A stretch of 64,000 nucleotides of DNA from Pseudomonadota bacterium (lineage in GTDB: Bacteria; Pseudomonadota; Gammaproteobacteria; Steroidobacterales; Steroidobacteraceae): NCBI GenBank assembly GCA_025356815.1, contig JANXQL010000028.1, positions 10,930 to 74,929 of the forward strand. The letters run 5' to 3'. The notes beneath the pieces are model-generated. The model saw only the letters and a program-made list of their open reading frames with translations, did no database searches and was not told the DNA's origin. Position numbers and translations under genes: made by a program. Shown here in pieces: positions 1,699 to 54,016 of this stretch (positions are counted from its first letter, which is position 1; each line of letters opens with the position of its first letter).

Positions 1699-1919
1699 GA
1701 TTCCAGCATGAATAAAATGACGATTCAAAGACACTCGTTCCGCGCGGCAAGCCGCCGCGGCCTCCCGGCGGTAGGGCGACTGCCGGGAAGTCGATCTCCA
1801 GCGTCTACAGTGGAGCGAGGCGCTGCGGGAGCTTGCCTACGGCGACCTGCGCAGCGACCCAGTCCCGTGCGACCGGCGCGATTCTCCGACCCCGGAGTGC
1901 ACTTGCCGGCCTGTGCGCG

Positions 1920-2298
1920 TCACGGCGCGTATAGCGCAGCGTTGTCGATGTAGATGCGGTAGCAGTCGATCCGGCCACCATCGAGGGTAAAGGTGTTGGC
2001 GAACGGCACGGTCACCTGGCGGCTGTCGTGCCGCGTGTACGTCACGGCGCCCTCGCAGGCCACGCTGCCCTCCCCAGATCAGCTGCGGGACAACTCGTGG
2101 TGGCAGCCGGCGATCGAATCGAAGAAGCCACCGACCGCGGCCAGGGTCGCCGCGCGACCCCGAACCGGCGGGCTGTTACCGAAGCGAAAGACCCCGTCCG
2201 GGGGTCAGCAACGCAGCGAAGCGTTGCGCATCGCGGGCGTCGATGGCCGCAAAAAGCGCCTTCCAGGCACGCCCCGCGGCGGTCCAGTCCGAGGCCAT
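1920..2298 (-). pseudogene. SnoaL-like / NTF2-fold protein disrupted by a +1 frameshift and an in-frame TGA
   Basis: ATG at 2298-2296 gives MASDWTAAGRAWKALFAAIDARDAQRFAALLTP. The frame breaks in a run of five C (plus-strand G 2200-2204). The next frame continues DGVFRFGNSPPVRGRAATLAAVGGFFDSIAGCHHELSRS, then TGA (2079-2081), then SGEGSVACEGAVTYTRHDSRQVTVPFANTFTLDGGRIDCYRIYIDNAALYAP to the stop at 1920-1922. Confidence 0.65.
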
Positions 2299-2650
2299 GT
2301 ACGTATCTGCCGTCACTTGTGCTTCTCCCCGGGACGCCCGCTGAGGCCGCCGCTTCGCGGTAGGCTCTACTGCATTTGGCGGTGAACAGTATCGCCGAAC
2401 CGCGTCGCGCGGGACATTTCGCATTGCAGCTTCGCTTTTGGTGGCCGGGACGCGCAACCCGCAACGTTCGAGGACCCTCGCATCGGTACAGACCGAAGCT
2501 ATCGCGCCCGCTTGAGCCGCCGCTGCGCCGAACGCTGACTTGGCCACTAGGAAGTGCTGCAAGTCCGTGAATTCTGACTAGGGATTTTCCGCTACTGCGG
2601 AACTTTTCGTTCAAGAGCATCTTTCGCAACCGCCAGAAAAGCGAAATAGC

Positions 2651-2671
2651 GGTAACGCCTCAAACGTTACC
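2651..2671 (+). promoter_or_regulatory. 7-bp perfect inverted repeat GGTAACG-N7-CGTTACC, 24 nt upstream of the first cytochrome start
   Basis: Read directly from the sequence. It lies between a lower-GC leader and the GGGAGAGAGGA Shine-Dalgarno region at 2683-2693. Function unknown (operator or 5'-UTR hairpin). Confidence 0.3.
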
Positions 2672-2694
2672 CACTGTCTTTCGGGAGAGAGGAC

Positions 2695-5373
2695 ATGAAA
2701 GTGAGCAGCAGCTGGGGAACACGGATTCTCGGTTGTGTATGGGCGTTCTTCGCCATCGCAATCCTCGCGGGTTGCTCCGGCGGCAAGGACGGCGCCCCTG
2801 GACAGCCTGGCCCCACGGGCCCCGGCGGTTCGACCGGCGGCACCGGCGGCACCGGCCCCATCCTTGCGCTCGACCTCTCGACCGCAAAGAGCATCACCGC
2901 CAAGGTCACCAGCGTGACCTCGGGCGCTTCACCGACGGTTACCTTCACGCTGGTCGACGAGACCGGCAATCCGCTGAAGGGCCTGAAGGCCAACCAGATC
3001 AGCGTCGCCATCGCGCAACTGCAGCCGACGGTGGGAGGCTACCCCCAGTGGCGCAGCTACGTGACGCAGGTTGAGGCCGCGCAGGCGGGCACCCTCGGCT
3101 GGGGCACGGCCGACGCGGTGCAGCCGAAGGCCGAAAGCGCGACCGCCGGGACGTTCGTCGACAATGGCGATGGCTCCTACACCTACCGGTTCAGCAAGGC
3201 GCTGGACGCTCTGGCAGTGGACGCGAACGCCGCCTACGCGGTCGCCGGCCGGATCCCGACCGGCGTCACGATTGCGTACGATGGCACGCTGACGCACCGC
3301 GTCGCGCTGGAGCTGCGCGCCCCGTTCGGCACCACGGCACTGAACCCTACGAATAACGCGGTTTACGACTACGTCCCGGCCACGGGCTCGACTGCGGTGA
3401 CGACCACGCGCAAGATCTCCAGCAACAAGCAGTGCGACGCCTGCCACGCGAAGTTCGCGATGCATGGCGGTCCTCGCATCGACGTCGAGTACTGCGTCGT
3501 GTGCCACAACTCCGGCAATGCGGATGCGCAGTCCGGCAACTCGCTGGACCTGAAGGTGCTGGCGCACAAGATCCATTCCGGCGCCAAGCTGCCGAGTGTG
3601 GTCGCGGACACCGTCAACCACGGCACAGTGCCGGGCGCTGGCATCGGCTACGTCATCTACGGCTACGGTGGCTCCGTCAACAACTTCAACGACGTTGTGT
3701 TCCCGCAGGACGTGCGCAACTGCACGACCTGCCACAACCCGGCCGATACCCTGAATACGCCGGATGCGGGTAACTACTCGGCGATCGCCAGCACGGCTGC
3801 CTGCGGCGCCTGCCACGACACGATGAACATGGTCACGCACGCCAATGCGGCTGACGTCGCCGCAGCCGACGCGAGCTGCATGAACTCCGGCTGCCACTCG
3901 GCAACCAGCCCGGGCGTCGCCGCCGTCGGCGGTGGCAACGTCGATGTCGTCACGGCCCACTCGATTGCCAAGCAGACGCAGATGGCGAAGTACAAGCTCA
4001 ACATCGTCCGCGTCGAAGCCATCCAGCCCGACGGTATGACGGTCGAGCCTGCCTGTGCCGCCAAGATCGCCGCGGCTGCGGCCGGCGCCACGGTCGTCTG
4101 CACGGTCCCGCCGGGCGACTATCCGCGCGTCTCGGTCACGGTCACCGACCCGACCAACGCCAACGCGAAGTACGACCTGCGTGCGGCCCCGTTCAACACC
4201 TACGGCACCTCGCTCTCGGCTCGCGCGGGCTGGTCGACGCTCAACTACACCAACCCGGGCACGATCGTCGGCGCCGGCACGACCCAGGCCGAGTCGGTGT
4301 CGTTCTTCGCGAACGTCGGCAAGACCTCCGCCGCGCCCGCGCCGGCCACGACCGCGGTCAACGTCACGACGCCGACCGCGTTGGCCGCCGTGTCGGTCAT
4401 CCCCTCGGTCCCGGCCGTGATCGTCAGCGCCGACGGCACGATGCTCAGCGCGCGCTTCCCGTACTCGGTGCCGCTGGCATCGGAGCGGGTGCTCGCCGGT
4501 GGTAGCGGCGCGATCGGTGCCCAGGCGCAGATCAACCTGCTCGGCGTGGCCGACGTCGGGACGACCGCGCCGCTCATCTCGGGCTCGGTGCCGTCGCTGT
4601 ACGCGACAGCCGTCCCGCTCAAGTCGGCAGACGTGGTCTCCTTCCCGATCACCGACACGACCGCCGTCGCTCGTCGCGTCGTCGTCGACTCGAACAACTG
4701 CCTGCGCTGCCACAAGAAGCTGGTGCTGCACGGCAGTCGCGTCGACAACGTGCAGTTCTGCGTGATGTGCCACAACCCCGCCCAGGCGCCGTACGTGCCG
4801 ACGCGCGCGGCCTCGGGCGTGTACCTGCAGGGCTCGGAGCCGGTGGACTTCAAGTTCTTCGTGCACGCCATTCACTCGGCGCAGTACAAGGCCGGCCAGC
4901 TCGATTTCACCGAGGTCGGCTTCCCCGGCCAGCTCGGCAACTGCCTCGGCTGCCACAAGACCGACACCTACTTCCCGGTCGATCCGACCAAGGTGTTCGG
5001 CACGACGATCGACCCGGGCACCCAGCCGACCGCCACGCGGTTCGGCGGCTACGACGATCCGACGCAGCACTACGCGATCACCGCGAACGCGGCGGCGTGC
5101 GGCTCCTGCCACGCGGATGCGACGGCGCAGAACCACATGAAGCAACAGGGCTCGGTAGTCATCGGCGACCTGATCTCGACCGGCGGCGCGGGCATGAACG
5201 GACTTGGCTTCGGCGTCCCGAACACCTTCGTGTCGGGTGCGCCGCACATCAAGGCGCTGGATGGCTCGACGCTGCCGCAGTACCAGACCGAAACGTGCAG
5301 CGTCTGCCACGGTCCGGGCGCGACGGCGGACGTGAAGGTCGTCCACGGCGTGGCCTCGTACAAGTACAACTGA
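2695..5373 (+). CDS. Outer-membrane decahaem c-type cytochrome lipoprotein, OmcA/MtrC family (paralog 1, 892 aa)
   Basis: Lipobox ILAGCSGG followed by a Gly-X-Y tract. Haem motifs in order: CDACH, CVVCH, CTTCH, CGACH, CMNSGCH (CX4CH), CLRCH, CVMCH, CLGCH, CGSCH, CSVCH, grouped 5+5. TFVDNGDGSYTYRFS and CDACHAKFAMHGGPRIDVEYCVVCHN resemble Shewanella MtrC as I remember it. Confidence 0.85.
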   Translation: MKVSSSWGTRILGCVWAFFAIAILAGCSGGKDGAPGQPGPTGPGGSTGGTGGTGPILALDLSTAKSITAKVTSVTSGASPTVTFTLVDETGNPLKGLKANQISVAIAQLQPTVGGYPQWRSYVTQVEAAQAGTLGWGTADAVQPKAESATAGTFVDNGDGSYTYRFSKALDALAVDANAAYAVAGRIPTGVTIAYDGTLTHRVALELRAPFGTTALNPTNNAVYDYVPATGSTAVTTTRKISSNKQCDACHAKFAMHGGPRIDVEYCVVCHNSGNADAQSGNSLDLKVLAHKIHSGAKLPSVVADTVNHGTVPGAGIGYVIYGYGGSVNNFNDVVFPQDVRNCTTCHNPADTLNTPDAGNYSAIASTAACGACHDTMNMVTHANAADVAAADASCMNSGCHSATSPGVAAVGGGNVDVVTAHSIAKQTQMAKYKLNIVRVEAIQPDGMTVEPACAAKIAAAAAGATVVCTVPPGDYPRVSVTVTDPTNANAKYDLRAAPFNTYGTSLSARAGWSTLNYTNPGTIVGAGTTQAESVSFFANVGKTSAAPAPATTAVNVTTPTALAAVSVIPSVPAVIVSADGTMLSARFPYSVPLASERVLAGGSGAIGAQAQINLLGVADVGTTAPLISGSVPSLYATAVPLKSADVVSFPITDTTAVARRVVVDSNNCLRCHKKLVLHGSRVDNVQFCVMCHNPAQAPYVPTRAASGVYLQGSEPVDFKFFVHAIHSAQYKAGQLDFTEVGFPGQLGNCLGCHKTDTYFPVDPTKVFGTTIDPGTQPTATRFGGYDDPTQHYAITANAAACGSCHADATAQNHMKQQGSVVIGDLISTGGAGMNGLGFGVPNTFVSGAPHIKALDGSTLPQYQTETCSVCHGPGATADVKVVHGVASYKYN

Positions 5374-5390
5374 TCAACGCAACGACGAGC

Positions 5391-5414
5391 GGCCCGGCGC
5401 ACCAGCGCCGGGCC
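5391..5414 (+). promoter_or_regulatory. Perfect 10-bp GC stem with a 4-nt loop in the 67-nt spacer between the two outer-cytochrome genes
   Basis: GGCCCGGCGC-ACCA-GCGCCGGGCC. No U-tract follows, and a GAGGAG Shine-Dalgarno for the next gene sits at 5429-5434. Confidence 0.5.
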
Positions 5415-5440
5415 ACGACGGACCGAACGAGGAGCGAACC

Positions 5441-7912
5441 ATGTTCGCGATGACTAAGGCGATTCGTGGCCAGACGCTGGCCGGTGTTGTGCTCTCGCTC
5501 GTGGCGGGGGTGCTGCTGGCGGGCTGTAGCGGGGGAGCGGGGTCCACCGGACCTGCCGGTCCCGCGGGCGGGTCGGGATCCACCGGACCCGGCGGGTCGC
5601 CGCTGGCACGCGACATCTCGGTGGCGCAGTCGATCACGGTGCAGATCACCGGGGTCAACGGCGGCGCTTCGCCGAAGATCTTCTTCAACCTCGCCGACCA
5701 GAAGGGCCAGCCGCTGTACGGCCTGAAGGCTACGCAGGTCCGCTTCGCGATCGCAAAGCTGGTGCCGGGCAACAACGGTAGCCCGAGCGACTGGGTTTCC
5801 TACATCAACACCGTTGACAACCCGGTCGCAGGACAAGGCTGGGGCACCGTCCCGACCCGCCAGCCGACCGCGGAAGTCGCAAGCACCGCTGGCGGCGCCT
5901 TCGTCGACAACGGCGACGGCACCTACAGCTACACGCTGTCGAAGAGCCTCGGCGCCTACACGGCCGCCGACGCCATGGGACCTGCGATCGCATACGACCC
6001 GAGCGTGCCGCATCGCGTCGGCCTCGAGCTGCGCGGCACCGGCCCCAACAGCAGCAACAACGGCATCAACAACGGCGTGTTCAACTGGCTGCCGCAGACC
6101 GGTGCCACCACGAACCTCGCGACTCGCGACATCGTCGGCAACCGCGAGTGCTTCGCCTGCCATGCGCGGCTCGCGCTGCACGGCGGCGCGCGCAACGACA
6201 TCCAGTACTGCGTGATCTGCCACAACCCCGGCAACAAGGATGCGCAGTCGGGCAATACGCTCGACTTCAAGGTGATGGTCCACCGGATCCACCAGGGCGC
6301 GAACCTGCCCACCGTCGTCGATGCCGGCAGCACCGATCCCGCGCAGGGCATCGGCTACACCATCTGGGGCTTTGGCGGCTCGGTGAACAACTTCAATACC
6401 GTCGTCTGGCCGCAGGACACGCGCAACTGCACGACCTGCCACAACGCGTCGGATCCGGCGACGCCAGACGCGGACAACTACAAGAACGCCCCCAACGAGG
6501 CCGCCTGCACCGGATGCCATGACGACGCGAGCATGACCACCGGCGTCAACCACGGCCCGACCAACCAGCCCTCGACCGACGCCGACTGCGTGACCTGTCA
6601 CGGCCCGACGGCGAGCGTCGCCGCGGGCGCTTGGCAGGTGGCGGCGTTGCACGTGATCCCCGAAAAGGTCGCGTCCGGCCAGTTCAAGTACAACCTCCTG
6701 TCGGTGACCAGCGATACCGATGGCGCCCTCGCCAATGGCGGGCAGATGAAGATCACCTTCTCGGTGACCGACCCGACCCGACCGGGCGCCTGGTACGACA
6801 TCCGCTCGGACGTCGCGTTCGCAGGCGCCGACGCCGGCGGCGTGGTCTGCCGCGGCGGTGGGCCGGCACGGCTCGCGATCGATGTGGGCTGGAGCACCGG
6901 CGACTACACGAACTTCGGCTCCAACGCCAAACCCGCGCAGCCATGGTCGTTCAACCCGATCACCGGCAGCGTTGCCGCGACCGCCGGCGTGACCGGCTGC
7001 CCGGCGGATGCCGCGGCCGCGGTCACCGGCCCCGACGCGAACGGCGTGTTCACGCTGGTCACCCACAAGGCCGGCGGCCTGCCTGCCGGGATCGGCTCGC
7101 TGACGGTCGTGTTCGAGGGACACCCGGCGGTCGATACGCAAAACGTCGGTACCACCGCCGGCACCGGCTGGCAGCGGATCGCGGTCACCACCGCCGTCAG
7201 CAGCGTGAAGGTCAACGACGCCAAGCTCGTTGCACGCCGCAGCGTGGTGGCGATCGCCAAGTGCGACCGCTGCCACAACCAGCTCACGGTGCATGGCAAC
7301 AACCGTACCGACAATCCGCAGGCCTGCGTCGTCTGCCACAACCCGGGCGCCACCGACGGCGCGCGGCGGGCGGGCATCAAGGACGCTGACGGTACGGTGA
7401 CGGGCTTCGACCCGGTCGATGGCCTGTACGAGCAGCCGATCGACTTCAAGTTCCTGATCCACGGCATTCACGCCGCGGACTACCGCGCGACCCAGGGCGC
7501 GGATCCGCTCGTGGTGTACGGATTCGGCGGCTCCCGCACCGACTTCGGCGACGTGGGCTTCCCCGGTGCGATCAACGACTGCGAGATGTGCCACACCGCC
7601 GGCACCTACTTCCCCGTCGATGTGACCCAGGTGCAGGCGACGAGCACGAGCACGGGCACGCTGGTCAACGCGTTGAACCCGAATCCGGTCGCGGCGACAT
7701 CGCCGAACATGGCGGCCTGCTCGGCCTGCCACACGGCGACGATCGCCCGCACCCACATGCTGCAGAACGGTGGATCGACGTCGATCCAGAAGGACGCCAA
7801 CGGGCGCTCGCTGGCCGGATCGGTCGCGGAGACCTGCGGGATCTGCCACGGACCGGGTGCGACGGCGGACGTCAAGGTCGTGCACAAGGTGGCGTCCTAC
7901 CCGTACAACTGA
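5441..7912 (+). CDS. Outer-membrane decahaem c-type cytochrome lipoprotein, OmcA/MtrC family (paralog 2, 823 aa)
   Basis: Lipobox LLAGCSGG plus a Gly-X-Y tract. Ten canonical CXXCH motifs: CFACH, CVICH, CTTCH, CTGCH, CVTCH, CDRCH, CVVCH, CEMCH, CSACH, CGICH. The C-terminus CHGPGATADVKVVHKVASYPYN parallels paralog 1. Confidence 0.85.
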   Translation: MFAMTKAIRGQTLAGVVLSLVAGVLLAGCSGGAGSTGPAGPAGGSGSTGPGGSPLARDISVAQSITVQITGVNGGASPKIFFNLADQKGQPLYGLKATQVRFAIAKLVPGNNGSPSDWVSYINTVDNPVAGQGWGTVPTRQPTAEVASTAGGAFVDNGDGTYSYTLSKSLGAYTAADAMGPAIAYDPSVPHRVGLELRGTGPNSSNNGINNGVFNWLPQTGATTNLATRDIVGNRECFACHARLALHGGARNDIQYCVICHNPGNKDAQSGNTLDFKVMVHRIHQGANLPTVVDAGSTDPAQGIGYTIWGFGGSVNNFNTVVWPQDTRNCTTCHNASDPATPDADNYKNAPNEAACTGCHDDASMTTGVNHGPTNQPSTDADCVTCHGPTASVAAGAWQVAALHVIPEKVASGQFKYNLLSVTSDTDGALANGGQMKITFSVTDPTRPGAWYDIRSDVAFAGADAGGVVCRGGGPARLAIDVGWSTGDYTNFGSNAKPAQPWSFNPITGSVAATAGVTGCPADAAAAVTGPDANGVFTLVTHKAGGLPAGIGSLTVVFEGHPAVDTQNVGTTAGTGWQRIAVTTAVSSVKVNDAKLVARRSVVAIAKCDRCHNQLTVHGNNRTDNPQACVVCHNPGATDGARRAGIKDADGTVTGFDPVDGLYEQPIDFKFLIHGIHAADYRATQGADPLVVYGFGGSRTDFGDVGFPGAINDCEMCHTAGTYFPVDVTQVQATSTSTGTLVNALNPNPVAATSPNMAACSACHTATIARTHMLQNGGSTSIQKDANGRSLAGSVAETCGICHGPGATADVKVVHKVASYPYN

Positions 7913-7931
7913 TGCAGAGCTCGTGGCGCGA

Positions 7932-7952
7932 CGGGGGAACTCGCTTCCCCCG
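7932..7952 (+). promoter_or_regulatory. 8-bp stem-loop CGGGGGAA-CTCGC-TTCCCCCG just downstream of the paralog 2 stop
   Basis: Read directly. No U-tract. It precedes the CAGAA microsatellite. Confidence 0.4.
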
Positions 7953-7977
7953 CCGCCTCTCGAGAGACGAAGCGGAC

Positions 7978-8002
7978 CAGAACAGAACAGAACAGAACAG
8001 AA
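7978..8002 (+). repeat. Pentanucleotide microsatellite (CAGAA)x5
   Basis: Five perfect tandem CAGAA units counted in the sequence. The tract ends 13 nt before the mtrA ATG at 8016. Confidence 0.95.
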
Positions 8003-8015
8003 GTAGAGGCTTCCG

Positions 8016-8993
8016 ATGCGCGACCACCAACCGACTGCTCGACTGCGTGACTGGGCGCTTGCTGCGTGCCTGACCGCGTTCAGCCTGTTCGGGTCGACGC
8101 CGGCCGGCGCCGCCGAAGGCGCTGCTGGGCCGGCCGCGCCTGCCAAGAGCGCCTACAGCAAGGCTGGCGCCGACACCTGTCTGGACTGCCACGATGAGGC
8201 GGCGGTCGCTGGCATCTTCAAGACGGCACACGGCCGGCCCACCAACGATGCCGGCCCCTTCGGCCATGGGCAGCTGCAGTGCGAAGCCTGCCACGGTCCG
8301 GGCGACCTGCATTCCAACGGCAAGGGCAAGGCGCGGCCGCACCTGATCCAGTACGGCAAGAACGCGCTGACGTCCAAGACGGCGCAGAACGAGCAGTGCC
8401 TGACCTGCCACCGCGACACCGCCGCTCACTGGGGCGGCAATGCGCACGCCGCGAACGACGTGTCCTGCGCCGACTGCCACAAGCTGCACCAGGCGAAGGA
8501 CCCGGTCCGCGAGGTCGCGACCCAGACGGAGGTCTGCACCAGCTGCCACCAGACGCGCAAGTCGGATGCGATGAAGCCATCGCACCATCCGCTGCGCGAG
8601 GGCAAGATGGCCTGCAGCAGCTGTCACGCGCCGCACGGCTCGACGGCGCCTGCGCAGCTGAAGAAGAACTCCGTGAACGAGACGTGCACGAGCTGCCACG
8701 CGGAATATCGCGGGCCGTTCCTGTGGGAGCACGCCCCGGTCGCCGAGGACTGCGCCAACTGTCACCAGCCGCACGGCTCGACTCAGCCGGCAATGCTCAA
8801 GACGCGGGCGCCGTTCCTGTGCCAGCAGTGCCACGAGGTGCAGGGGCACCCCGCGGTCTCGTACACGCCGGATGGTCTGCCGGGCGGCAGCGGCACTCAG
8901 CGCGGCGCGTTCCTGCTCGCCGGTAGCTGCCTCAATTGCCACTCAAAAGTACACGGTTCGAACCATCCCTCCGGCTCGAAACTGATGCGCTGA
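8016..8993 (+). CDS. mtrA: Periplasmic decahaem c-type cytochrome, MtrA/DmsE family (325 aa)
   Basis: Signal peptide ...LFGSTPAGAAEG. Ten CXXCH motifs: CLDCH, CEACH, CLTCH, CADCH, CTSCH, CSSCH, CTSCH, CANCH, CQQCH, CLNCH. Size and position immediately upstream of the barrel gene match MtrA. Confidence 0.9.
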   Translation: MRDHQPTARLRDWALAACLTAFSLFGSTPAGAAEGAAGPAAPAKSAYSKAGADTCLDCHDEAAVAGIFKTAHGRPTNDAGPFGHGQLQCEACHGPGDLHSNGKGKARPHLIQYGKNALTSKTAQNEQCLTCHRDTAAHWGGNAHAANDVSCADCHKLHQAKDPVREVATQTEVCTSCHQTRKSDAMKPSHHPLREGKMACSSCHAPHGSTAPAQLKKNSVNETCTSCHAEYRGPFLWEHAPVAEDCANCHQPHGSTQPAMLKTRAPFLCQQCHEVQGHPAVSYTPDGLPGGSGTQRGAFLLAGSCLNCHSKVHGSNHPSGSKLMR

Positions 8994-9006
8994 GCGGGAG
9001 TCCAGC

Positions 9007-11109
9007 ATGTCACCCCGTCATATGATCAAGTTCTCCATCGCCGCGGTTCTCGCCGCGGCAGCCAGCCAGGCCCTCGCGGACGACGCGGCCGCGCCACCCG
9101 ACACGAGCGGGTGGACGTGTTCCGCCTGCCCGTTCGACAAGGGCCAGCAGGCCGACGTGTCGGCCGGGGCGATCTACGCCGACGGCGCCAACGCGGCCTC
9201 CGGCAGGTTCACGGGCCTGGATCGTCAGTCGACGTTCATCGACCTGGCGGCGCATGGCACCTACGCCAACGACAAGGGCCAGTTCGCGAACTACGCGCTC
9301 GACAACCTCGGGCTCGACTCGCGCAGCGGTTCGGTCAAGTTCGGCCGCTACGGACACTACGACGTCGCGCTGAAGTACGACGGCCAGCCGTTCCGGCGCT
9401 ACGACACGGCCGTCACGCCGTACAGCGGCGGCTCGGCGCAGACGCTGCCCGCCGACTGGACGGCCGCCGGTACGCCCGCTGGCATGACCGGCCTCGATGC
9501 CGCCCTGCACGGGATCGACATCGGCACGCTGCGCAAGACCTACGGCGTCGCCGCGCGCTGGTTCCCCGGCCACGGCCTGCAGCTGTTCGCCTCGTTCGAC
9601 CGCCAGGACAAGAGCGGCACGCAGCTCGTGGGCGCGAGTTTCCTGACGCAGTCGGTGCAGTTGGCGGCGCCGGTCAACTACAAGACGGACACCCTCGAGG
9701 TCGGCGTGGCCTGGTCGGGCCATGGCACGGCCTGGCGCTTTTCCGCGTCGGACTCCAAGTTCCGCAACGACGATCCGCTGCTGACCTTCCAAAGCCCGTA
9801 CCTTTCGTTCTTCGAGGGCGTTCCCACCGGCACAATTGGTGGCCTGTCGCGGCCGCCGGAAAACGAGGCGCGCAGCTGGAACTTCACGGCCAGCGCCGCG
9901 CTGCCGATGAATACCTCCGCCTCTATGGTGATGGGCTCGAGCACCCTGCTGCAGTCGGCGGCGCTGCTGCCGGTGACCGCGCAGCCGGACGCGCTGCCGC
10001 CGAGCGAGGCGTTCGATGGCAACGTGCGACTGACGCATTTCGCGGCGACCGTCGGCTCGCGCCCCTGGTCGCGACTGCACCTGCACGGCCGGGCCGCCTA
10101 CGACGAACGTTCCGATCACGGCACCACGTTGGCCCTGACGCAGTACCTGACAGATCTGGTCGCAGGTCCCACCGTCACGACGCCGCGCTTCGACTTCCAG
10201 CGCATTCGCCTGGACGGCGGCGCGGATGTGCGCGTGTCGTCCTCGACGACCATCGGCATCGCCGCTGATCGGGTCGAGATCGACCGCACGCAGCAGCTGG
10301 TCGCGCACACCGAGGATGGGCGGACCTACGGCCGGGTGAAGTGGACGCCGGGCGGCGGCTTTGCAGTCACGCTCAAGGGTGGCGCGGCGCATCGCGACGC
10401 GCGCGGAGTGAACCTGAGCTACCTACCGGTGGGACAGAACCCGCTTTTGAGCATGTTCAACCTGTCCAACCGGGATCGTGAGTTCGGCGACATCGACGTC
10501 GTCTGGAGCCCGGGCGAGAAGCTGTCGATCACGCTGCAGGCGTCGGCCAACAACGACCACTACGGCCGCTCGGTGCTCGGCCTGCTCGACGGCAAGGAGC
10601 GCCGCGGCGCGGCGAACATCAGCTGGACGCCGAACGAGAAGGTGTCGTTCTACGTCGATGCCGGCTACCAGACCCGCAACACGCTGCAGGCCGGCGCCTA
10701 CAGCCCGTCGTCGGCCACTTGGCAGGCGGAGATCCGGGACCGGTTCCGCAACCTCGGTGCGGGCCTGAAGTACACCAACGAGAAGTGGAACTACGCGATC
10801 GACGTCGCGCACGCGACTTCGGTCGGCGAGACCAGCTCGGGCCTCGTCAATGGGCTCGCGCAGTTCCCGGACCTGAACGCAACCTATGACAACGCGCGCG
10901 TGTCGGTGGGCTACGCCGCGACCGAGCGGCTGGCCGTGAGGGTGCGGTACGTGTACCAGAACTACTCATCGCTGGACTGGGCGCTGGACGGCGTCGGCCC
11001 CGCCACGGCCAACAACCTGCTGGCGATGGGCGTGGGTCCGGACCACTACAACGCCAGCATTTTCGGTTTAAGCTTCACCTACAGGTACGGCACGCCCGCA
11101 TCGCCCTGA
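9007..11109 (+). CDS. mtrB: Decahaem-associated outer-membrane beta-barrel, MtrB/PioB family (700 aa)
   Basis: Signal peptide ...ASQALADD. N-terminal WTCSACPF (CXXC) motif. Long alternating beta-strand-like sequence ending in an aromatic-rich C-terminus (FGLSFTYRYG). 13 nt after mtrA. Confidence 0.85.
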   Translation: MSPRHMIKFSIAAVLAAAASQALADDAAAPPDTSGWTCSACPFDKGQQADVSAGAIYADGANAASGRFTGLDRQSTFIDLAAHGTYANDKGQFANYALDNLGLDSRSGSVKFGRYGHYDVALKYDGQPFRRYDTAVTPYSGGSAQTLPADWTAAGTPAGMTGLDAALHGIDIGTLRKTYGVAARWFPGHGLQLFASFDRQDKSGTQLVGASFLTQSVQLAAPVNYKTDTLEVGVAWSGHGTAWRFSASDSKFRNDDPLLTFQSPYLSFFEGVPTGTIGGLSRPPENEARSWNFTASAALPMNTSASMVMGSSTLLQSAALLPVTAQPDALPPSEAFDGNVRLTHFAATVGSRPWSRLHLHGRAAYDERSDHGTTLALTQYLTDLVAGPTVTTPRFDFQRIRLDGGADVRVSSSTTIGIAADRVEIDRTQQLVAHTEDGRTYGRVKWTPGGGFAVTLKGGAAHRDARGVNLSYLPVGQNPLLSMFNLSNRDREFGDIDVVWSPGEKLSITLQASANNDHYGRSVLGLLDGKERRGAANISWTPNEKVSFYVDAGYQTRNTLQAGAYSPSSATWQAEIRDRFRNLGAGLKYTNEKWNYAIDVAHATSVGETSSGLVNGLAQFPDLNATYDNARVSVGYAATERLAVRVRYVYQNYSSLDWALDGVGPATANNLLAMGVGPDHYNASIFGLSFTYRYGTPASP

Positions 11110-11122
11110 ACGGAACTCAGCT

Positions 11123-12094
11123 ATGGATAGCGCTGCCCGGGTTTCAGATGGACCTACATCGGCGGAACTCGGGGGGCCCGGCCTGCCAGCCGCGCTCAGG
11201 CGGGCGTTCCTTGCGTCCCGCCCCAAGTTCTTCACCGCCTCGGTGCTGCCCGTGCTGGTCGGCACCGCCTGGGCGGGCGCGGCCGATCATGCATTCAACG
11301 GGCTGACGTTCGCGCTCGCGTTGCTCGCGACGGTGCTCGCGCATGCCGCGACCAACGTCTACAACGACGTCGGCGACGACCTCAACGGCACGGACCCTGC
11401 CAACGTCGGCCGCATCCATCCCTATACCGGCGGTTCGCGCTTTATCCAGAACGGGATCTTCAGCCGCGCGCAGATGCTGCGGCTCGCCGTCGTGCTGACG
11501 CTGCTCGCGCTCGCGGTGGGGGCGTGGCTGACGCTGCTGCGCGGGCCGGGCGTGCTGATGCTGGGACTCGCCGGGCTCGGGCTCGGACTGTTCTACTCGC
11601 AGCCTGGCGTGCAGCTGTCCGGACGCGGCAGCGGTGAGCTTGCCTGCGCCATCGGCCTCGGGGTCCTGCCGGTCGCGGGCGCCGCCTGGCTGCAGTCCGG
11701 CGTCGTCGATCCCGGTGCGTGGCTGCTCGGCACGATCGTCGCCGTCTGGGTTTGCCTGATCCTGCTGATCAACGAGGTGCCGGACTCCGTCGCTGACGCC
11801 GCCGCCGGCAAGCGCACGCTCGCGGTGCGCCTGGGCGAAGCGGGTACGGTGGTGCTCTATCGAGCGCTGACACTGTGCGCGCTCGGCGCGGGCGTTGCGC
11901 TCGTCGTGCGCCGCGACGTGCCGATCTGGGCGGCGCTGCCGCTGCTGCTGCTGGCGGCGGCGGGGCTCAAGGCGGCGGGCGGGATCTCGCTCGCGCCAGC
12001 GCATCGCGCAGGCCTGACCCGGTCGATCGAGATGACCCTCGGCATCCACGCCGTCGGCAGCCTGGTGCTGGTCGCGGCTGCGCTGCTGCGCTAG
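11123..12094 (+). CDS. UbiA-superfamily prenyltransferase, MenA-like (1,4-dihydroxy-2-naphthoate prenyltransferase family)
   Basis: Polytopic membrane protein. First Asp-rich motif NVYNDVGDDLNGTD (compare MenA NDYGDxxxGxD). Second motif NEVPDSVADAAAGKRTLAVRLGE (compare MenA NNxRDxxxDxxxGKxTLxVRLG). 13 nt after mtrB on the same strand. Confidence 0.65.
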   Translation: MDSAARVSDGPTSAELGGPGLPAALRRAFLASRPKFFTASVLPVLVGTAWAGAADHAFNGLTFALALLATVLAHAATNVYNDVGDDLNGTDPANVGRIHPYTGGSRFIQNGIFSRAQMLRLAVVLTLLALAVGAWLTLLRGPGVLMLGLAGLGLGLFYSQPGVQLSGRGSGELACAIGLGVLPVAGAAWLQSGVVDPGAWLLGTIVAVWVCLILLINEVPDSVADAAAGKRTLAVRLGEAGTVVLYRALTLCALGAGVALVVRRDVPIWAALPLLLLAAAGLKAAGGISLAPAHRAGLTRSIEMTLGIHAVGSLVLVAAALLR

Positions 12095-12103
12095 CGTGCG
12101 TTG

Positions 12104-13246
12104 CTAGTCCAGCGCACGGGCGACGGCGGCGAAGAACGCGGTGTCCTCGACCACGTGCGCGTCGGAGGGCTTGGGTCGCGCGCACAGCGCGACGATCGCG
12201 AGGCGCCTCGCCGGATGCAGGTAGATCCGCTGGCCGAAGATCCCCATCGCGAGGAACGCACCCTCGTGCAGCGGATCGCTCGACGCCGGCAGCCACCACT
12301 GGTAGCCATAGTCGCGTCGCACGCCGTGGCGCGCGACGCGTGAGGTCGACTCCGCGAACCAGCCCTCGCGCACGACGCGGGTGGTGCCGACGCAGCCGTC
12401 GTCGAGGACGAACTGTGCGAAGCGCGCGTAGTCGCGCAGCGTGGCCGACAGCCCGCTGCCGCCGATCGTCGCGCCGCCCGCCGACTCGAGCCACCAGGCC
12501 GCGTCGGCGTTCATGCCCGCCGGCGACCACAGCCGCTCGCTCAGGAAGCGCCAGAGCGGTGCACCGACGGCCGCCTCCAATGCGGCACCGGCGAGATAGG
12601 TCTCGCCGGTGTTGTAGTTGAAGACGCTGCCCGGCGCATGCGCGCGCGGCCTCTCGCCCATCATGCGCAGCAGGCTGCCGGGCTCGCCTGCGATCTGCAG
12701 CTTGAGGAAGCGCCGGCGCTCCGAAGCGGGGTTGGTGTAGGTCTCGTCCCACGCGACGCCCGAGGCCATCTCCAGGACCTGGCGCAGCGATACGTCGCGG
12801 TAGGCGCTGGCGGCGAGCGCCGGCAGATAGCGTGCGATTGGGTCATCGAGGCGGCCCAGCAGGCCGTCGTGCAGGGCCGCGCCGTACAGCGTCGAGCAGA
12901 CCGATTTTGCGAGCGAGAACGACGCGAAGCGATCGCCCGGTGCAAGTCCCAGCTCGTAGTCCTCGCGGACGATCGCGCCGTCCTTGAGCACCAGCAGGCC
13001 TGCGACACGGTTGTAGGCGAGGTAGTCGGCCAGGTCATAGCGGCGGCCGTCGCTTGCGATCTCGACCGAGTCGAGCCGGTGTGACGAGGTGCTCAGGCGC
13101 TCTGGCGTCGCGCCGCAGGCGACGATCGCGACCGGGAACAGCGTATCGAGGCGCTTGAGCGTCGCCACCAGCCGGTCGGGCGTGAGCGTGCCGGCGTAGA
13201 GGCTGCGGATCAGGGCGGCACGCGCCGTGGCAGCGGACTCTTGCAT
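12104..13246 (-). CDS. Serine hydrolase, beta-lactamase/PBP4*-like family
   Basis: 380 aa from the internal ATG of ORF 12104..13906: MQESAATARAAL.... SxxK motif in FSLAKS. The upstream part of the track ORF is antisense to the methyltransferase gene and was discarded. Confidence 0.75.
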   Translation of the reverse strand: MQESAATARAALIRSLYAGTLTPDRLVATLKRLDTLFPVAIVACGATPERLSTSSHRLDSVEIASDGRRYDLADYLAYNRVAGLLVLKDGAIVREDYELGLAPGDRFASFSLAKSVCSTLYGAALHDGLLGRLDDPIARYLPALAASAYRDVSLRQVLEMASGVAWDETYTNPASERRRFLKLQIAGEPGSLLRMMGERPRAHAPGSVFNYNTGETYLAGAALEAAVGAPLWRFLSERLWSPAGMNADAAWWLESAGGATIGGSGLSATLRDYARFAQFVLDDGCVGTTRVVREGWFAESTSRVARHGVRRDYGYQWWLPASSDPLHEGAFLAMGIFGQRIYLHPARRLAIVALCARPKPSDAHVVEDTAFFAAVARALD

Positions 13247-13360
13247 GGAACGCGATGTTACCCGAGCCGCCGCGCCATCGGCGGCCAGCGCTGGGCGCGA
13301 CCCGCCCGTGTGGCATGCTGGCACCGCCCGCTCACCGCGGGTGACCCGACCGGATGCTCC

Positions 13361-13960
13361 ATGGCCCGCGCGCCCACCGATTTCGACGAAGCGTTCTTCG
13401 AGCGCTATTACGGCGATCCCGCCACGCGCGTGGCCGATCGCGGCGACGCCGAACGACTCGCCGGCCTGATCGCGGGGGTGCTGCATTATCTGGAACTGCC
13501 GGTGCGTCGCATCCTCGACGCCGGCTGTGGCACGGGGTTGCTGCGCGAGCCGCTCGAGCGCCTTTTCCCGAAGGCGCGCTACGAGGGACTCGAGGTCAGC
13601 CCGTACCTGTGTCGGCGCCACGGCTGGCTGCAGGGCTCGCTCGCCGATCACGTGGCCCGCCAGCCGTACGACCTGGTCGTCTGCCACGACGTGCTGCAGT
13701 ACCTGGACGACGCCTCGGCCGCGCGGGCGATCAAGAACCTCGCCCGCCTGAGCCGCGGGGCGCTGTACCTGAGCGTGCTGACCCGGCGCGACTGGCGCCA
13801 CGCCGCCGACCAGTCGCGGACCGACCGCGGCGTCCACCTGCGGGACGTCGACTGGTACCGCCGCCGGCTGCGGCGCGGCTTTCACCACGTCGCCGCCGGC
13901 GTGCACCTGTCACGGACGCTGGAGCCGATCCTGTGGGAGCTCGAGACGCCCTGGAAATAG
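13361..13960 (+). CDS. Class I SAM-dependent methyltransferase
   Basis: MARAPTDFDEAFFERYYG.... Motif I ILDAGCGTGLL. Internal ATG of ORF 13241..13960. Confidence 0.75.
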   Translation: MARAPTDFDEAFFERYYGDPATRVADRGDAERLAGLIAGVLHYLELPVRRILDAGCGTGLLREPLERLFPKARYEGLEVSPYLCRRHGWLQGSLADHVARQPYDLVVCHDVLQYLDDASAARAIKNLARLSRGALYLSVLTRRDWRHAADQSRTDRGVHLRDVDWYRRRLRRGFHHVAAGVHLSRTLEPILWELETPWK

Positions 13961-18416: not shown

Positions 18417-20501
18417 ATGACCGACGACGCTCCCCGCGCCGCGCTTCGCAACTTCGACGTGCTCTCGCCGTGGGGCGCACGCGCCGATCCCTACTACTGG
18501 CTGCGGGACGACGAGCGCGAAGACCCGGACGTGCTCGACTACCTGCACGCCGAGAATGACTATCGCAGCCGCACGCTGGGCCGGCTGCGACCGCTGGAGG
18601 AGCGGCTCTTCGTCGAGATGACCGGCCGTCTGCGCCAGGACGACGCGACGGTGCCGGTGCTGTCGAACGGCTACTGGTACTGGAGCCGCTACGAGCCCGG
18701 CCGGGAGTACGCGCTGCACGTGCGCAGACGCGCACCCGGAGCCTCCGAGGAGCTGCTGGTCGACGGCAATGCCGAGGCGGTCGGGCGGGAGTTCTACGAG
18801 CTGGGCAACCTCGAGGTGAGTCCCGACAACCGCACGCTCGCGCTGGCCGAGGACACGCGCGGCCGGCGCCAGTACACATTGCGCTTTCGCGACCTCGCCA
18901 CCGGCCAGGACTACCCCGAGCGCATCGACAACGCCGAGCCGGATCTTGCCTGGGCGGACGACGGCCGCGCGCTGCTGTACGTCGCGAAGGACCCGGAGAC
19001 GCTGCTCGGCTACCGCGTGTTCCGGCACCTGCTGGGCACGCCTGCCGACGCCGACACGCTGGTCTACGAGGAGGCGGACAGGGCGTTCTACATGGGCGTC
19101 GAGCGCAGCAAGAGCGGTCGCTACGTGTACATCGTGCTGCAGAGCACGGTGTCGAGCGAGTACCGCTACGCGCGCACCGACGATCCGACGCTTGCGTTCG
19201 AGCTTGCGTTGCCGCGCGAGCGCGACCACGAGTACCAGCTCGAGGATCTCGACGACCGGTTCGTGATCCGCAGCAATCACCGGGCGCCCAACTTCCGCAT
19301 CGCCTCCGCCCCGATCGCGACCATCGCCGACCGCGGCGCGTGGCGCGACGAGGTCGCGCACCGGACGGACGCGTTCATCGGCGGCTTCGAGGTGTTTGGC
19401 GAGTTCCTCGTGGTGGCCGAGCGTGCCGGCGGCCTGCGCCGGATCCGGGTGCGCGCCTGGGACGGCTCGCGCGACTTCCTGCTGGCCGCGGACGAGGCCG
19501 CCTACACGATGTCGCTCGGCGACAACGAAGAGCTCGACAGTCACGTGCTGCGCTACGTGTACTCGTCGCTGACGACGCCGCGCACCACCTATGACTACGA
19601 CATGCGCAGCGGCGAGCGCGTGCTGCTCAAGCGCGACCCGGTCGAGGGCGACTTCGACCCGGCCCGTTACGTCACCGAGTTCGTGCAGGCGCCGGCACGC
19701 GACGGGAGCCGCGTGCCGGTATCGCTGCTGTTCCGGCGCGGCTGCCCGCGCGACGGCACTGCGCCGCTCTACCAGTATGCCTACGGCGCCTACGGCCACT
19801 CGATCGACCCGTCGTTCCGCGCGACGGTTCTGTCGCTGGTGGACCGCGGCTTCGTGTTCGCGCTCGCGCACGTGCGCGGCGGCCAGGAGCTGGGTCGGCG
19901 CTGGTACGACGACGGTCGCACGCTCGCCAAGCGGCACACCTTCGAGGACTTCGTCGACGTCACGCGCCACCTGGTGGGCGAGCGCTACGTCGACCCGGCG
20001 CGGGTCTGCGCCGCCGGCGGCAGCGCGGGCGGACTGCTGATCGGCGCGGTCGCCAACCTTGCGCCGACCGAATATCGCGCGCTGGTCGCGCACGTGCCGT
20101 TCGTCGACATCGTCACGACCATGCTCGACGACGACATCCCGCTGACGACCAATGAGTACGACGAGTGGGGCAACCCCGCGGCCGACCGCGTCGTGCACGA
20201 CTACATGCTATCGTACAGCCCTTACGACAACGTCACCGCCCAGGCGTATCCAGCGATGCTGGTGACCACCGGCCTGCACGACAGCCAGGTGCAGTACTGG
20301 GAGCCCGCCAAGTGGGTCGCGCGACTGCGTGCGCGGCGTACCAACGATGCGCTGGTCGTGCTGCACACCAATTTCGACACCGGCCACGGCGGTAAGTCCG
20401 GGCGTTTCGAGCGCTACCGCGAGATCGCCGAGGAATACGCGTTCCTGCTCGACCAGACCGGGCTCGCGGCCGCCGAGCCCGTCCGAGGAGACTCACCATG
20501 A
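18417..20501 (+). CDS. ptrB: Oligopeptidase B (S9A prolyl oligopeptidase family)
   Basis: 694 aa. N-terminal [26 protein letters not shown]. Catalytic-Ser motif GGSAGGLL. C-terminal His region DTGHGG. Confidence 0.85.
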
Positions 20502-21100
20502 AGCTCTACTACGCCCCCGGCGCCTGCTCGCTCGCTGCGCACATCGTGCTGCGCGAACTCGAGCTGCCGTTCCAGCTGGTCGCGGTCAGCCTGTCGCGCA
20601 AGACCACCAGCAGCGGCGCCGATTTCAACGCCATCAACCCGAAGGGCTACGTGCCGGTGCTGCAGCTCGACGACGGCAGGTTGCTGACCGAGGGCACCGC
20701 CGTGCTGCAGTATCTGGCGGATCTGGCGCCGGGCAAGGCGCTGGCGCCCGCCAACGGCACGTTCGAGCGCTACCGGCTGCAGGAGTGGCTGGGGTTCATC
20801 AACTCCGAGCTGCACAAGACCTTCGGGCCGCTGTTCGATGCGACGGCGCCGGCGGAGGCGAAGGCGCGCGCCCGCGCGCTGCTGGGCCGGCGCCTGGGCT
20901 ACCTCGACGGCGTGCTGCACGGGCCGTACCTGATGGGCGCGACATTCACGGTGGCCGACGCGTACCTGTACACGGTGCTCAGCTGGGCCAGCCACGTCGG
21001 CGTGGACCTCGACGACTGGCCGGCCGTGAAGGGCTACTTCGAACGGCTGGTGACGCGGCCGACGATCCAGGCCGCGCACGCCGCCGAGCGCGCACGCTAG
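20498..21100 (+). CDS. gstA: Glutathione S-transferase (beta-class, GstA-like)
   Basis: [25 protein letters not shown].... ATGA overlap with ptrB and a GAGGAG Shine-Dalgarno. Confidence 0.8.
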
Positions 21101-21104
21101 CGGC

Positions 21105-23264
21105 TCAGGCCGGTGCCTTGACGAACTCGGTGTGTGCAAGCGGCAGTCGCCGCGCGCGCACGCCGGTCAGCGCGTACAGCGCGTTCGCGACCGCAGGTGC
21201 GAGCGGCGGCGTGCCCGGCTCGCCGACGCCGGTCGGCGCGTCGGTCGAAGGCACGATGTGCACCTCGACGCGCGGCATCTCGGTGAGGCGCAGCGGCGGG
21301 TAGTCGCCGAAGTTCGACTGCTGGACGCGGCCCTGCGCGAGCGTGATCTCGCCGTGCAGCGCTGCGGACAGCGCGTAGCAGACCGCGCTCTCCACCTGGT
21401 ACGCGACCTGGCCCGGGTTCACCGCGAGCCCGCAGTGGATCGCCGCGACCACGCGGTGCACGCGCGGCCGCCCGTCGATGAGCGACACCTCGGCGACCTC
21501 GGCGACCACGCTGCCGAACGAGGCGTGCACCGCGAGGCCGCGGGCATGGCCGGCCGGCAGTGGCGTGCCCCAGCCGGCCTTCTCGGTCGCAAGCTTGAGC
21601 ACGGCGAGGTGGCGCGGCTGGTCGGCGAGCAGCGCGAGGCGATAGGCGAGCGGGTCCTGGCCTGCGGCCGTGGCGCACTCGTCGATGAAGCTCTCGACCG
21701 CGAAGCCCGTCTGGGCGTGGCCGACCGATCGCCACCACAGCACCGGTACCGCCTGGCGTGCGTCGTGCACGGCGACGTGCACGTTCGGCACGGCGTACGG
21801 CTGGTGCGAGGCGCCCTCGTGCTGGGTCTCCTCGATGCCGGTCCTGGGGTCGGCCATCATCTTCTCGAACGGCGTGCCGCGCGTGATCGACTGCACCACC
21901 TGCGTGTGGCTCCAGCGCGTCGGCCGGCCGTCGACGCCGAGCATGGCGGTCAGGCGGTTGTGTGCCTGCGGCCGGTAGTAGCCGCCGTGGATGTCGTCCT
22001 CGCGCGTCCACACCGTCATCACCGGCGCCGGGTAGCCCTTCGCGACCGCGACCGCCTCGCGCACGAAATCGCTGGCGGGATTGGCGCGGCGCCCGAAGCC
22101 GCCGCCGAGCAGCATCGTGTGGATGCGCACCTGCTCCGGCGCCAGCCCCGCCACGGCAGCTGCGGCGGCCCGGTCGACGGTCTGGAACTGGGTGCCGGTG
22201 TGGATGTCGCAGCCATCGGCGGAAAACGCGACGGCGCAGTTGAGCGGCTCCATCGGCGCGTGCGCGAGGTACGGGGTCGCGTAGTCGGCCTCGAGCGCCC
22301 GTCCGCTGCCGGTCGCGGCCATGTCGCCGCGCTCGTAGATCGTGACGCCCGGCGTGCGTGCACGCGCGGCGTAGTCGGCCGCGATGGCCTCGCTCGAGAC
22401 GGCGGCGCCGGCACCGGCTACCCACTCGACCTTGAGCGCGGCGCGCCCCTGGATCGCCGCCCAGGTGTTGGTCGCGATCACCGCGATGCCGCTGGGCACC
22501 TCGCGCACGGCCAGCACGCCCTGCACCTCGCGCGCGGCCGTCGCGTCGTAGTGGCTCACCGTCGCGCCGAAGGTCGGCGCGCGGGCGACGACCGCGTAGG
22601 CCATGCCGGGCAGCCGCACGTCGCAGCCGAAGCGGGCGCTGCCGTCGACCTTGCCGCGGGTGTCGATCCGCGGCACGGCCTTGCCGATCAGTTGCCACTC
22701 GCTGGCGGGCTTGGGCTGCGGGTCGGAGGGCGCCGGCAGGGTCGCGGCGCGCGCGGCGAGGGCGCCGTACGGCAGGTGCCGGCCGCTGGCGGCGTGCACC
22801 ACCGCGCCATTCACCGCGCGCAGCTCGGTGGCGTCGACGCCGAACTCGGCCGCCGCGGCGCCCAGCAGCAGGCTGCGCGCGCTGGCGCCGGCCTTGCGCA
22901 GCACCTCGAAGCTGCCCGCGATGCTCGAGCTGCCGCCGGTGAACTGGATCGGCGCGAAGGCGGCGTTGTAGACGGCGGCGACCGGCGCCGCCTCGATGCT
23001 GACGTGCTCGAGGCCGACCTCGAGCTCGTCGGCGAGGATCTGCGCAAATCCGGTGTAGATGCCCTGACCCATCTCCGATTTCGGCACCAGCAGCGTGACC
23101 CGGCCGTCGCTCGCGATGCGCACGTAGGCGTTGACGCTCGAGTCGACGACCGTCGCCGCGCCCGCGCCCGCGGCGCGGCCGCGCTGCGGCAGGGCGATGC
23201 CAATCAGCAGGCCACCGGCGGCGATGCCGGCGGTCTTCAGAAACGTCCGGCGGGAGGCGTGCAT
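21105..23264 (-). CDS. Molybdopterin-binding oxidoreductase large subunit (aldehyde oxidase / isoquinoline 1-oxidoreductase beta-subunit family)
   Basis: 719 aa. Tat-type signal [22 protein letters not shown]. Partnered with the adjacent 2Fe-2S subunit. Confidence 0.8.
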
Positions 23265-53991: not shown

Positions 53992-54016
53992 CTGTCAATT
54001 CCGGGCCAAAAAAGGG

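Follow-up and report, generated by a model that had tools for sequence, protein, structure and literature searches.

A probable MtrCAB-type conduit for outward electron transfer with a linked MenA-like prenyltransferase gene in an uncultured soil gammaproteobacterium

A 64-kb stretch of DNA (the window; positions 10,930 to 74,929 of contig JANXQL010000028.1, assembly GCA_025356815.1) from a gammaproteobacterium assigned to the Steroidobacteraceae carries, at 2695-12094, five consecutive genes for two surface multihaem cytochromes, MtrC1 and MtrC2, the periplasmic cytochrome MtrA, the outer-membrane porin MtrB and a MenA-like prenyltransferase. Taken as a whole, the evidence makes it quite probable that these genes form an operon for an MtrCAB-type porin-cytochrome conduit through which electrons flow outward, and that the fifth gene, a relative of MenA and UBIAD1, has been inherited together with mtrB.

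A five-gene porin-cytochrome locus

The locus opens with two genes for surface decahaem lipoproteins, mtrC1 (2695-5373, 892 amino acids, aa) in the distal, OmcA-like position and mtrC2 (5441-7912, 823 aa) next to mtrA. They are followed by mtrA itself (8016-8993, 325 aa), encoding a periplasmic decahaem cytochrome with a signal peptide, by mtrB (9007-11109, 700 aa), encoding an outer-membrane β-barrel sheath that likewise has a signal peptide, and by a gene for a MenA-like prenyltransferase of the UbiA superfamily (11123-12094, 323 aa). All five lie on the forward strand with intergenic gaps of 67, 103, 13 and 13 nt, as a first-pass annotation of this DNA had stated and the coordinates of the open reading frames (ORFs) confirm. 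That annotation was right about the four Mtr proteins and about their Shewanella-like order of omcA-like gene, mtrC, mtrA and mtrB, but its gene count fell short: four gaps separate five genes, and the prenyltransferase inside the same interval had gone undescribed.

All five ORFs are intact and have a coding GC3 (G+C fraction at third codon positions) of 0.86-0.90 in a window of ~70% G+C; together with the kept catalytic and haem motifs, this excludes a pseudogene or relic. The locus holds 29 CXXCH motifs and one CX4CH motif. Elsewhere in the full 64 kb, a six-frame scan found just one other CXXCH within ORFs of 80 aa or more, so that chance does not account for this cluster of haem motifs. 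A scan of 1700-13400 returned no sigma-70 promoter match and terminator-like sites at a frequency no higher than in shuffles, and no FNR/CRP-type box was found upstream of mtrC1. Judged from layout and homology, the five genes probably constitute one operon encoding an MtrCAB-type conduit.

Searches with family hidden Markov models (HMMs) placed all four Mtr proteins above the curated NCBIfam cut-offs. MtrA, whose ten CXXCH motifs had been counted correctly in the first annotation, scored 296.5 bits against the DmsE/MtrA model TIGR03508 (cut-off 192.2) and matched Shewanella baltica MtrA (PDB 6R2Q chain A) with an E-value of 2.6e-85 over residues 43-325. MtrB scored 329.1 bits against the MtrB/PioB model TIGR03509 (cut-off 240) and 358.7 bits against PF11854 (MtrB_PioB), and matched S. 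baltica MtrB (PDB 6R2Q chain B) over its full length (E-value 7e-54, residues 17-693), bearing out the proposed MtrB/PioB homology of the barrel.

The N-terminal CXXC reported for this barrel is also present, as CSAC (nt 9118-9129, forward strand, aa 38-41) within WTCSACPF (aa 36-43), and both cysteines, C38 and C41, are invariant in a five-sequence alignment. When motif position was taken relative to the MtrB C-terminus, W-x-C-x-x-C-P-F was found in 80 of 86 MtrB ORFs from related loci and in all but one of the 68 related loci that also hold an MtrC ORF (67/68). According to Wee et al. 2014, as cited in PMC12175506, the N-terminal CxxC of MtrB (C42) is a signature of metal-reducing Gammaproteobacteria. 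By homology to the S. baltica MtrCAB structure, MtrB would form a 26-strand outer-membrane barrel, with the ten-haem chain of MtrA running through it.

That MtrA is scored by a model named for DmsE raises the possibility of a DmsEF-type conduit serving a reductase for a soluble substrate such as dimethyl sulfoxide or iodate. Such a conduit is very improbable here: in place of an adjacent DmsAB-type molybdoenzyme the locus has two OmcA/MtrC-family cytochromes, and the window's one molybdopterin enzyme, of the xanthine-dehydrogenase type, is encoded ~10 kb off on the opposite strand. We reject this assignment on account of the missing DmsAB.

Two surface cytochromes that differ at haem 5

Both surface cytochromes scored above the cut-off of the OmcA/MtrC model TIGR03507 (209.3 bits), MtrC1 with 403.6 and MtrC2 with 481.9 bits, and in MtrC1 Pfam recognises OmcA-like_N and MtrC-MtrF_II-IV_dom. 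Each has a lipobox, LAGC, at Cys27 in MtrC1 (nt 2764-2775, forward strand) and at Cys29 in MtrC2 (nt 5516-5527, forward strand), followed by a Gly/Pro-rich stretch, which in MtrC1 forms a tether ahead of four domains. The two proteins are 39% identical. An AlphaFold model of MtrC1 (mean predicted local distance difference test score, pLDDT, 79.7; predicted template-modelling score 0.77) retrieved from the PDB, by Foldseek at E-values up to 1e-3, only OmcA (E-value 1.5e-33), UndA and MtrC, with target-normalised template-modelling (TM) scores of 0.58-0.69 for the full-length chains. PDB sequence matches of MtrC2 were S. oneidensis OmcA (E-value 1.9e-41), MtrF, UndA and MtrC.

The description of both proteins as lipoproteins with ten haem motifs in a 5+5 arrangement stands for the 823-aa MtrC2, which has ten CXXCH. 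The 892-aa MtrC1 has nine CXXCH and, at the expected position of the fifth haem, the variant CX4CH motif CMNSGCH (nt 3877-3897, forward strand, aa 395-401), and is 5+5 only if the variant is counted. This motif is kept as C[MLA][NST][SA][GNSAT]CH in all 16 mtrC1 orthologues checked (52-100% identity); every other MtrC homologue checked has ten CXXCH.

In the solved S. baltica MtrCAB complex, haem C5 of MtrC lies 8 Å from haem A10 of MtrA, and around C5 the sequence contacts MtrAB and is conserved among members of the MtrC clade (PMC7198977). Because haem 5 is thus the haem that faces MtrA, and because it has a canonical CXXCH in MtrC2 and CX4CH in MtrC1, we infer a division of labour by analogy with that complex. 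MtrC2 is probably the docking partner of MtrAB and would sit at the surface with its haem 5 towards haem 10 of MtrA, and the more divergent MtrC1 is probably an OmcA-like peripheral surface cytochrome that would enlarge the reactive surface.

The two proteins had also been remarked upon as longer than their Shewanella counterparts. They are longer than MtrC, but within the family such lengths are nothing out of the ordinary: UndA in the PDB has a chain of 874 residues, mtrC1 orthologues have 894-943 aa, and among the best 120 of 871 MtrC2 homologues at an E-value of 1e-10 or lower, many of them named 'Steroidobacteraceae bacterium', nearly all have ~790-860 aa. The extra length is a property of the clade; homologues of ~790-940 aa number in the hundreds among metagenome genomes of soil and peat, many of these named Steroidobacteraceae.

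Comparison with the omcA-mtrCAB locus of S. oneidensis and S. baltica (PDB 6R2Q; OmcA, 4LMH) shows a shared order of an extra surface cytochrome, mtrC, mtrA and mtrB. The ten-haem MtrA, the full-length MtrB with its N-terminal CXXC, the four-domain decahaem lipoproteins and the curated HMMs passed are likewise common to both. In contrast to Shewanella, the cytochromes of the window are only 15-20% identical to the MtrC, OmcA and UndA structures (Foldseek alignments), have 823-892 aa with a Gly/Pro-rich tether and include a distal paralogue with CX4CH at haem 5; the window has neither a nearby cymA nor mtrDEF, and has a MenA-like gene within the operon; and its host is an uncultured high-GC (~70%) soil gammaproteobacterium. 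Sequence places the core clearly within the MtrCAB family, in a lineage undescribed in the literature searched. The traits that mark this lineage are its long tethered MtrCs, the CX4CH paralogue, the co-inherited MenA-like gene and, in the subclade of the window, the lack of an adjacent quinol dehydrogenase.

A MenA-like gene that accompanies mtrB

The 323-aa product of the fifth gene scored 101.7 bits against PF01040 (cut-off 34.2). Its best NCBIfam matches are all MenA models, every one below its cut-off, including NF004751 (115.9 bits, cut-off 264) and TIGR00751 (76.5 bits, cut-off 102.15). The sole PDB sequence match is UBIAD1 (E-value 6e-6), the animal menaquinone-4 synthase. UBIAD1 also gave the top TM score for the predicted structure (pLDDT 85.7), 0.69 when normalised to the query and 0.78 when normalised to the target; DGGGP synthase and archaeal UbiA homologues were matched as well, and target-normalised scores, UBIAD1 included, ranged from 0.67 to 0.78. 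Both Asp-rich motifs, as defined in PMC7839719, are intact (NDVGDDLNGTD, aa 81-91, and NEVPDSVADAAAGKRTLAVRLG, aa 217-238) and align with those of UBIAD1. The protein thus shares with MenA and UBIAD1 the UbiA-superfamily fold and the NDxxDxxxGxD and DxxxD...GKxTL motifs. It differs from MenA in its scores below the cut-offs, in a PYTGGSRFIQ segment that is invariant after the first Asp-rich motif, and in having no other men genes grouped with its own. No men or mqn gene was found among its recurrent neighbours, which are instead RatA/Coq10-like, SnoaL-like and SDR-like (short-chain dehydrogenase/reductase-like) genes and genes for V-type ATPase subunits. Since the gene starts 13 nt past mtrB and no terminator-like site lies in the gap, it is probably co-transcribed with mtrB.

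A scan with one genome per species found 58 related loci (denoted by L numbers), all in metagenome-assembled genomes from soils and peat bogs; the names of these genomes are mostly Steroidobacteraceae, Gammaproteobacteria or Proteobacteria, and the closest locus has an MtrB 77% identical to that of the window. Linkage was counted from both sides. Of 41 species loci with an MtrB at least 34% identical to that of the window, 27 have, at most 3 kb downstream of mtrB, an orthologue of the prenyltransferase (48-86% identical), and a further four have at the same place a non-orthologous MenA-like gene (29-32% identical to the window gene, alike in motif type) flanked by radical-SAM (S-adenosylmethionine) genes, bringing the total with a MenA-like gene to 31 of 41. 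Conversely, among the best 80 metagenome loci for the prenyltransferase, mtrB lies upstream and co-directional in 29 and downstream and convergent in 15, and nine are informative negatives, so that mtrB adjoins the gene in 44 of 53 informative loci; eight more lack mtrB with adequate flank on one side only, and 19 are too short to judge. Unbiased clustering of neighbours made MtrB the commonest neighbour family of the prenyltransferase (60 of 96 loci). The prenyltransferase and MtrB co-vary in their pairwise distances: Mantel r is 0.88 for the whole set and 0.78 in the co-directional clade, with 0 of 999 permutations as high in either case; these values are for orthologues only, and r falls to 0.34 when the non-orthologous MenA-like genes are mixed in.

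Such linkage could be mere synteny: mtr may have landed beside a housekeeping gene of the UbiA family, with the order kept by inertia, and we give this reading a substantial chance, somewhat short of even. L008 has, without mtr, the chromosomal backbone of the window's downstream region (glmU, glmS ... prenyltransferase, methyltransferase, TetR, PM0630 ... prolyl oligopeptidase ... DUF502), orthologues ~70% identical have no mtr nearby, and a RatA/Coq10-like gene also recurs beside the prenyltransferase (15 of 96 loci). Several observations weigh against a functional partnership. The prenyltransferase falls under every MenA equivalog cut-off; the orthologues in L008, L072-L075 and L006 have no mtr next to them, L006 sharing a contig with L051 but lying ~90 kb away from mtr; mtr occurs with no prenyltransferase in the sister subclade (L001, L014, L021); and tight co-divergence would also result if an ancient gene order were simply passed down vertically.

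Inertia fits less well with an adjacency that outlasts inversion (co-directional and convergent arrangements), insertion of a SnoaL-like gene and full turnover of the outer flanks, or with the appearance of a non-orthologous MenA-like gene in the same position in four species. The spacing between mtrB and the prenyltransferase is tight in several loci, with 13 nt in the window and in L002 and ~15-18 nt in L012 and L013 (tblastn coordinates). Moreover, in two loci with no mtr within reach, the prenyltransferase orthologue is immediately preceded, on the same strand, by a NapC/NirT-like gene (L106 1464-3038; L127 5362-6936) whose product is 40% identical to that of the cymA-like gene of L010. 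On this evidence we lean somewhat towards a functional link between the prenyltransferase and mtr; the conserved linkage with mtrB suggests a dedicated supply of quinone. No paper naming a prenyltransferase alongside MtrB or MtrCAB was found in the literature searched.

Further arrangements of these genes were seen among the relatives. In L022, two mtrB-prenyltransferase pairs (10001-13093 and 19143-21608) face each other ~6 kb apart, and mtrB is followed by a tandem double prenyltransferase in L026 (3874-6160) and L082 (2681-4967). The second MenA-like gene forms a cassette beside mtr, with one radical-SAM gene before and one or two after it, in L051 (12335-15259), L047 (12428-15223), L056 (12472-15324) and L019 (515-3364). 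The radical-SAM proteins of the cassette weakly resemble AhbD, NirJ and mycofactocin-type maturases, and the cassette may possibly make a modified quinone.

A gene for a class-I S-adenosylmethionine methyltransferase lies beyond the prenyltransferase (13354-13960, forward strand), with a β-lactamase-fold gene on the opposite strand between them, and in L008 such a methyltransferase gene directly follows the prenyltransferase (11037-11633). A MenA-MenG pairing is not supported, as the methyltransferase matched no NCBIfam model and, in Pfam, no UbiE/MenG family.

Quinol oxidation and the direction of electron flow

A conduit of this kind must be fed, and it is the quinol dehydrogenase that defines the pathway rather than the MtrCAB complex itself. 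The first annotation had noted that no CymA-type enzyme is encoded in the window, and rightly so: neither CymA nor NetBCD is present there. The haem-motif scan found no other multihaem ORF in the 64 kb, and a Pfam survey of the GC3-supported ORFs of the window turned up neither an NrfD-type subunit nor a 4Fe-4S ferredoxin partner, nor any gene for cytochrome maturation. Relatives do carry candidates. In a larger related clade (MtrB 34-40% identical), a divergently transcribed tetrahaem gene of the NapC/NirT family lies beside mtrC; its CymA-like product scored 194 bits against TIGR02161, below the cut-off. In the sister subclade (MtrB 51-52% identical), an NrfB/C/D-like (NetBCD-like) set, a 467-aa NrfH-like cytochrome and a PdsA-like dihaem cytochrome are encoded beside mtr. 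The larger clade also has NiFe-hydrogenase (HoxH) genes beside the mtr cluster.

A gene for a B12-binding radical-SAM protein of the uncharacterised family TIGR04190 (571 bits, cut-off 500) was observed in L010 (1570-3228) just upstream of the cymA-like gene, and is conserved in that position within the larger clade, at 80-86% identity, in ~17 other loci (e.g., L011, L018, L025, L029-L031, L036, L049 and L065). It sits between HoxH and cymA in L010 and L011 and does not occur in the window.

Outward electron transfer is the likeliest function of the conduit, to judge from its genes and those of its relatives; this direction is favoured because relatives have quinol dehydrogenase genes beside mtr and because MtrC-type cytochromes and the MtrB CXXC are present. 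Electrons would pass from the quinol pool to a quinol dehydrogenase of the inner membrane, its gene lying in another part of the genome, and on through the conduit to insoluble Fe(III) or Mn(IV) oxides, humic substances or similar terminal acceptors. In Shewanella, CymA requires menaquinone-7 as substrate and cofactor (PMC3340143), and an acquired mtr cluster works only where menaquinone synthesis pre-exists (Baker et al. 2022, PMC8805035). Because of these two requirements, a menaquinone-type supply is the most economical role for the fifth gene. By this analogy, the MenA-like prenyltransferase most likely supplies a menaquinone-type quinone, and would do so by prenylating a naphthoquinone-type head group to give a low-potential quinone for a CymA-type dehydrogenase.

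Three considerations tell against so complete a scheme. The 64-kb window holds no gene for an inner-membrane quinol dehydrogenase, cytochrome c maturation, type II secretion or the menaquinone head-group pathway. All relatives found are metagenome-assembled genomes, and the clade is known from sequence alone. Lastly, Mtr conduits can run in reverse, so that direction is not fixed by sequence alone.

Such reversibility, reported for Mtr-family conduits of Shewanella, would allow an inward conduit of the MtoAB and PioAB kind, with Fe(II), reduced humics or minerals as electron donors. Like MtoAB (Sideroxydans) and PioAB (Rhodopseudomonas), the window locus has a decahaem cytochrome of the MtrA family and a porin of the MtrB/PioB family, recognised by the same HMMs. 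To our knowledge, these Fe(II)-oxidation loci lack MtrC-type surface cytochromes; the window locus differs from them in having two MtrC/OmcA-family genes directly upstream of mtrA and the CXXC of MtrB. We regard inward flow as unlikely. The lack of a CymA-type gene in the window and the HoxH genes beside mtr in the larger related clade, which hint at a lithotrophic metabolism, would be in keeping with it, as would the MtrC-bearing clusters associated with MtoC/MtoD that Baker et al. describe (PMC8805035). Against it stand the two MtrC/OmcA-type surface cytochromes, the tie of the MtrB CXXC to metal reduction, and the pairing of mtr in relatives with CymA-like or NrfBCD/NetBCD-like quinol dehydrogenases. 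Furthermore, no mtoC or mtoD was noticed in the Pfam tables for the loci of eight relatives, tblastn not having probed for them.

Comparable loci are the non-Shewanella mtrCAB clusters surveyed by Baker et al. (2022, mBio), who distinguish seven groups with lineage-specific accessory genes and with CymA or NetBCD in at least some members, and who find extra mtrC copies at 44% of clusters (PMC8805035). The locus resembles these groups in having mtrCAB outside Shewanella and an additional mtrC beside the core cluster. One genome of that survey, Gammaproteobacteria bacterium MnB_17 (L046), has an MtrB 31% identical to that of the window; neither Steroidobacter nor a prenyltransferase is named in its text (PMC8805035).

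Surroundings of the locus

On its upstream side, mtr is flanked by an arsenic resistance operon (arsR, arsC and ACR3) on the reverse strand. The first-pass annotation had pointed to this neighbour, and the adjacency holds in the window but is not conserved: in L002 the five genes follow glmU-glmS, and proximity to ars is therefore incidental. The ACR3/SBF-family arsenite-efflux gene, which runs on the reverse strand from ~792 past the window start, has an in-frame TAG at 508-510 (...HLFAP*LPAGQLDSY...) that is due to a nonsense mutation or else to a mistake in the assembly. Between arsR and mtrC1 lies a decayed SnoaL-like gene (1929-2265, reverse strand), which is 55% identical over 91 aa to the intact SnoaL-like gene of L010 and has one frameshift and one in-frame stop (tblastn). 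Intact SnoaL-like genes flank mtr or the prenyltransferase in many relatives, and it is from this conserved neighbour that the decayed gene is left over.

In L002 (4193-9271), the mtr operon starts ~500 nt downstream of glmS, a classic integration hotspot. In L008 (6110-10972), the interval from glmS to the prenyltransferase holds genes for an FMN-dependent dehydrogenase and a HycI-like protease instead. Elsewhere in the window, an RND (resistance-nodulation-division) efflux operon unrelated to mtr (48327-54664, reverse strand) encodes an outer-membrane factor, a membrane-fusion protein, an AcrB-type pump and a TetR regulator. No tRNA genes or Rfam families were found in the 64 kb.

Implications

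Bacteria allied to the Steroidobacteraceae are usually viewed as aerobic or denitrifying heterotrophs. If the conduit is active, Shewanella-type extracellular electron transfer would reach abundant uncultured Gammaproteobacteria of soil and peat allied to this family, with a bearing on the cycling of iron, manganese and humic substances in soils.

A more far-reaching proposal, which we put forward tentatively and hold to be rather doubtful as a whole, is that the distinct MenA-like family is a dedicated Mtr accessory in a large uncultured soil and peat clade of Gammaproteobacteria. There it would make a particular prenylquinone of low potential, possibly a modified one, through which the inner-membrane quinol dehydrogenase is coupled to the conduit, and the CX4CH motif would mark a new class of OmcA-like cytochromes. 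If the MenA-like gene is indeed such an accessory, the mtr locus would amount to a 'quinone-to-mineral' module, almost complete in itself, within aerobes that otherwise rely on ubiquinone. What a conduit demands of its host matters both for the horizontal spread of the trait and for Mtr transplants into other hosts, and the MenA-like partner offers a testable handle on host requirements beyond mtrCAB.

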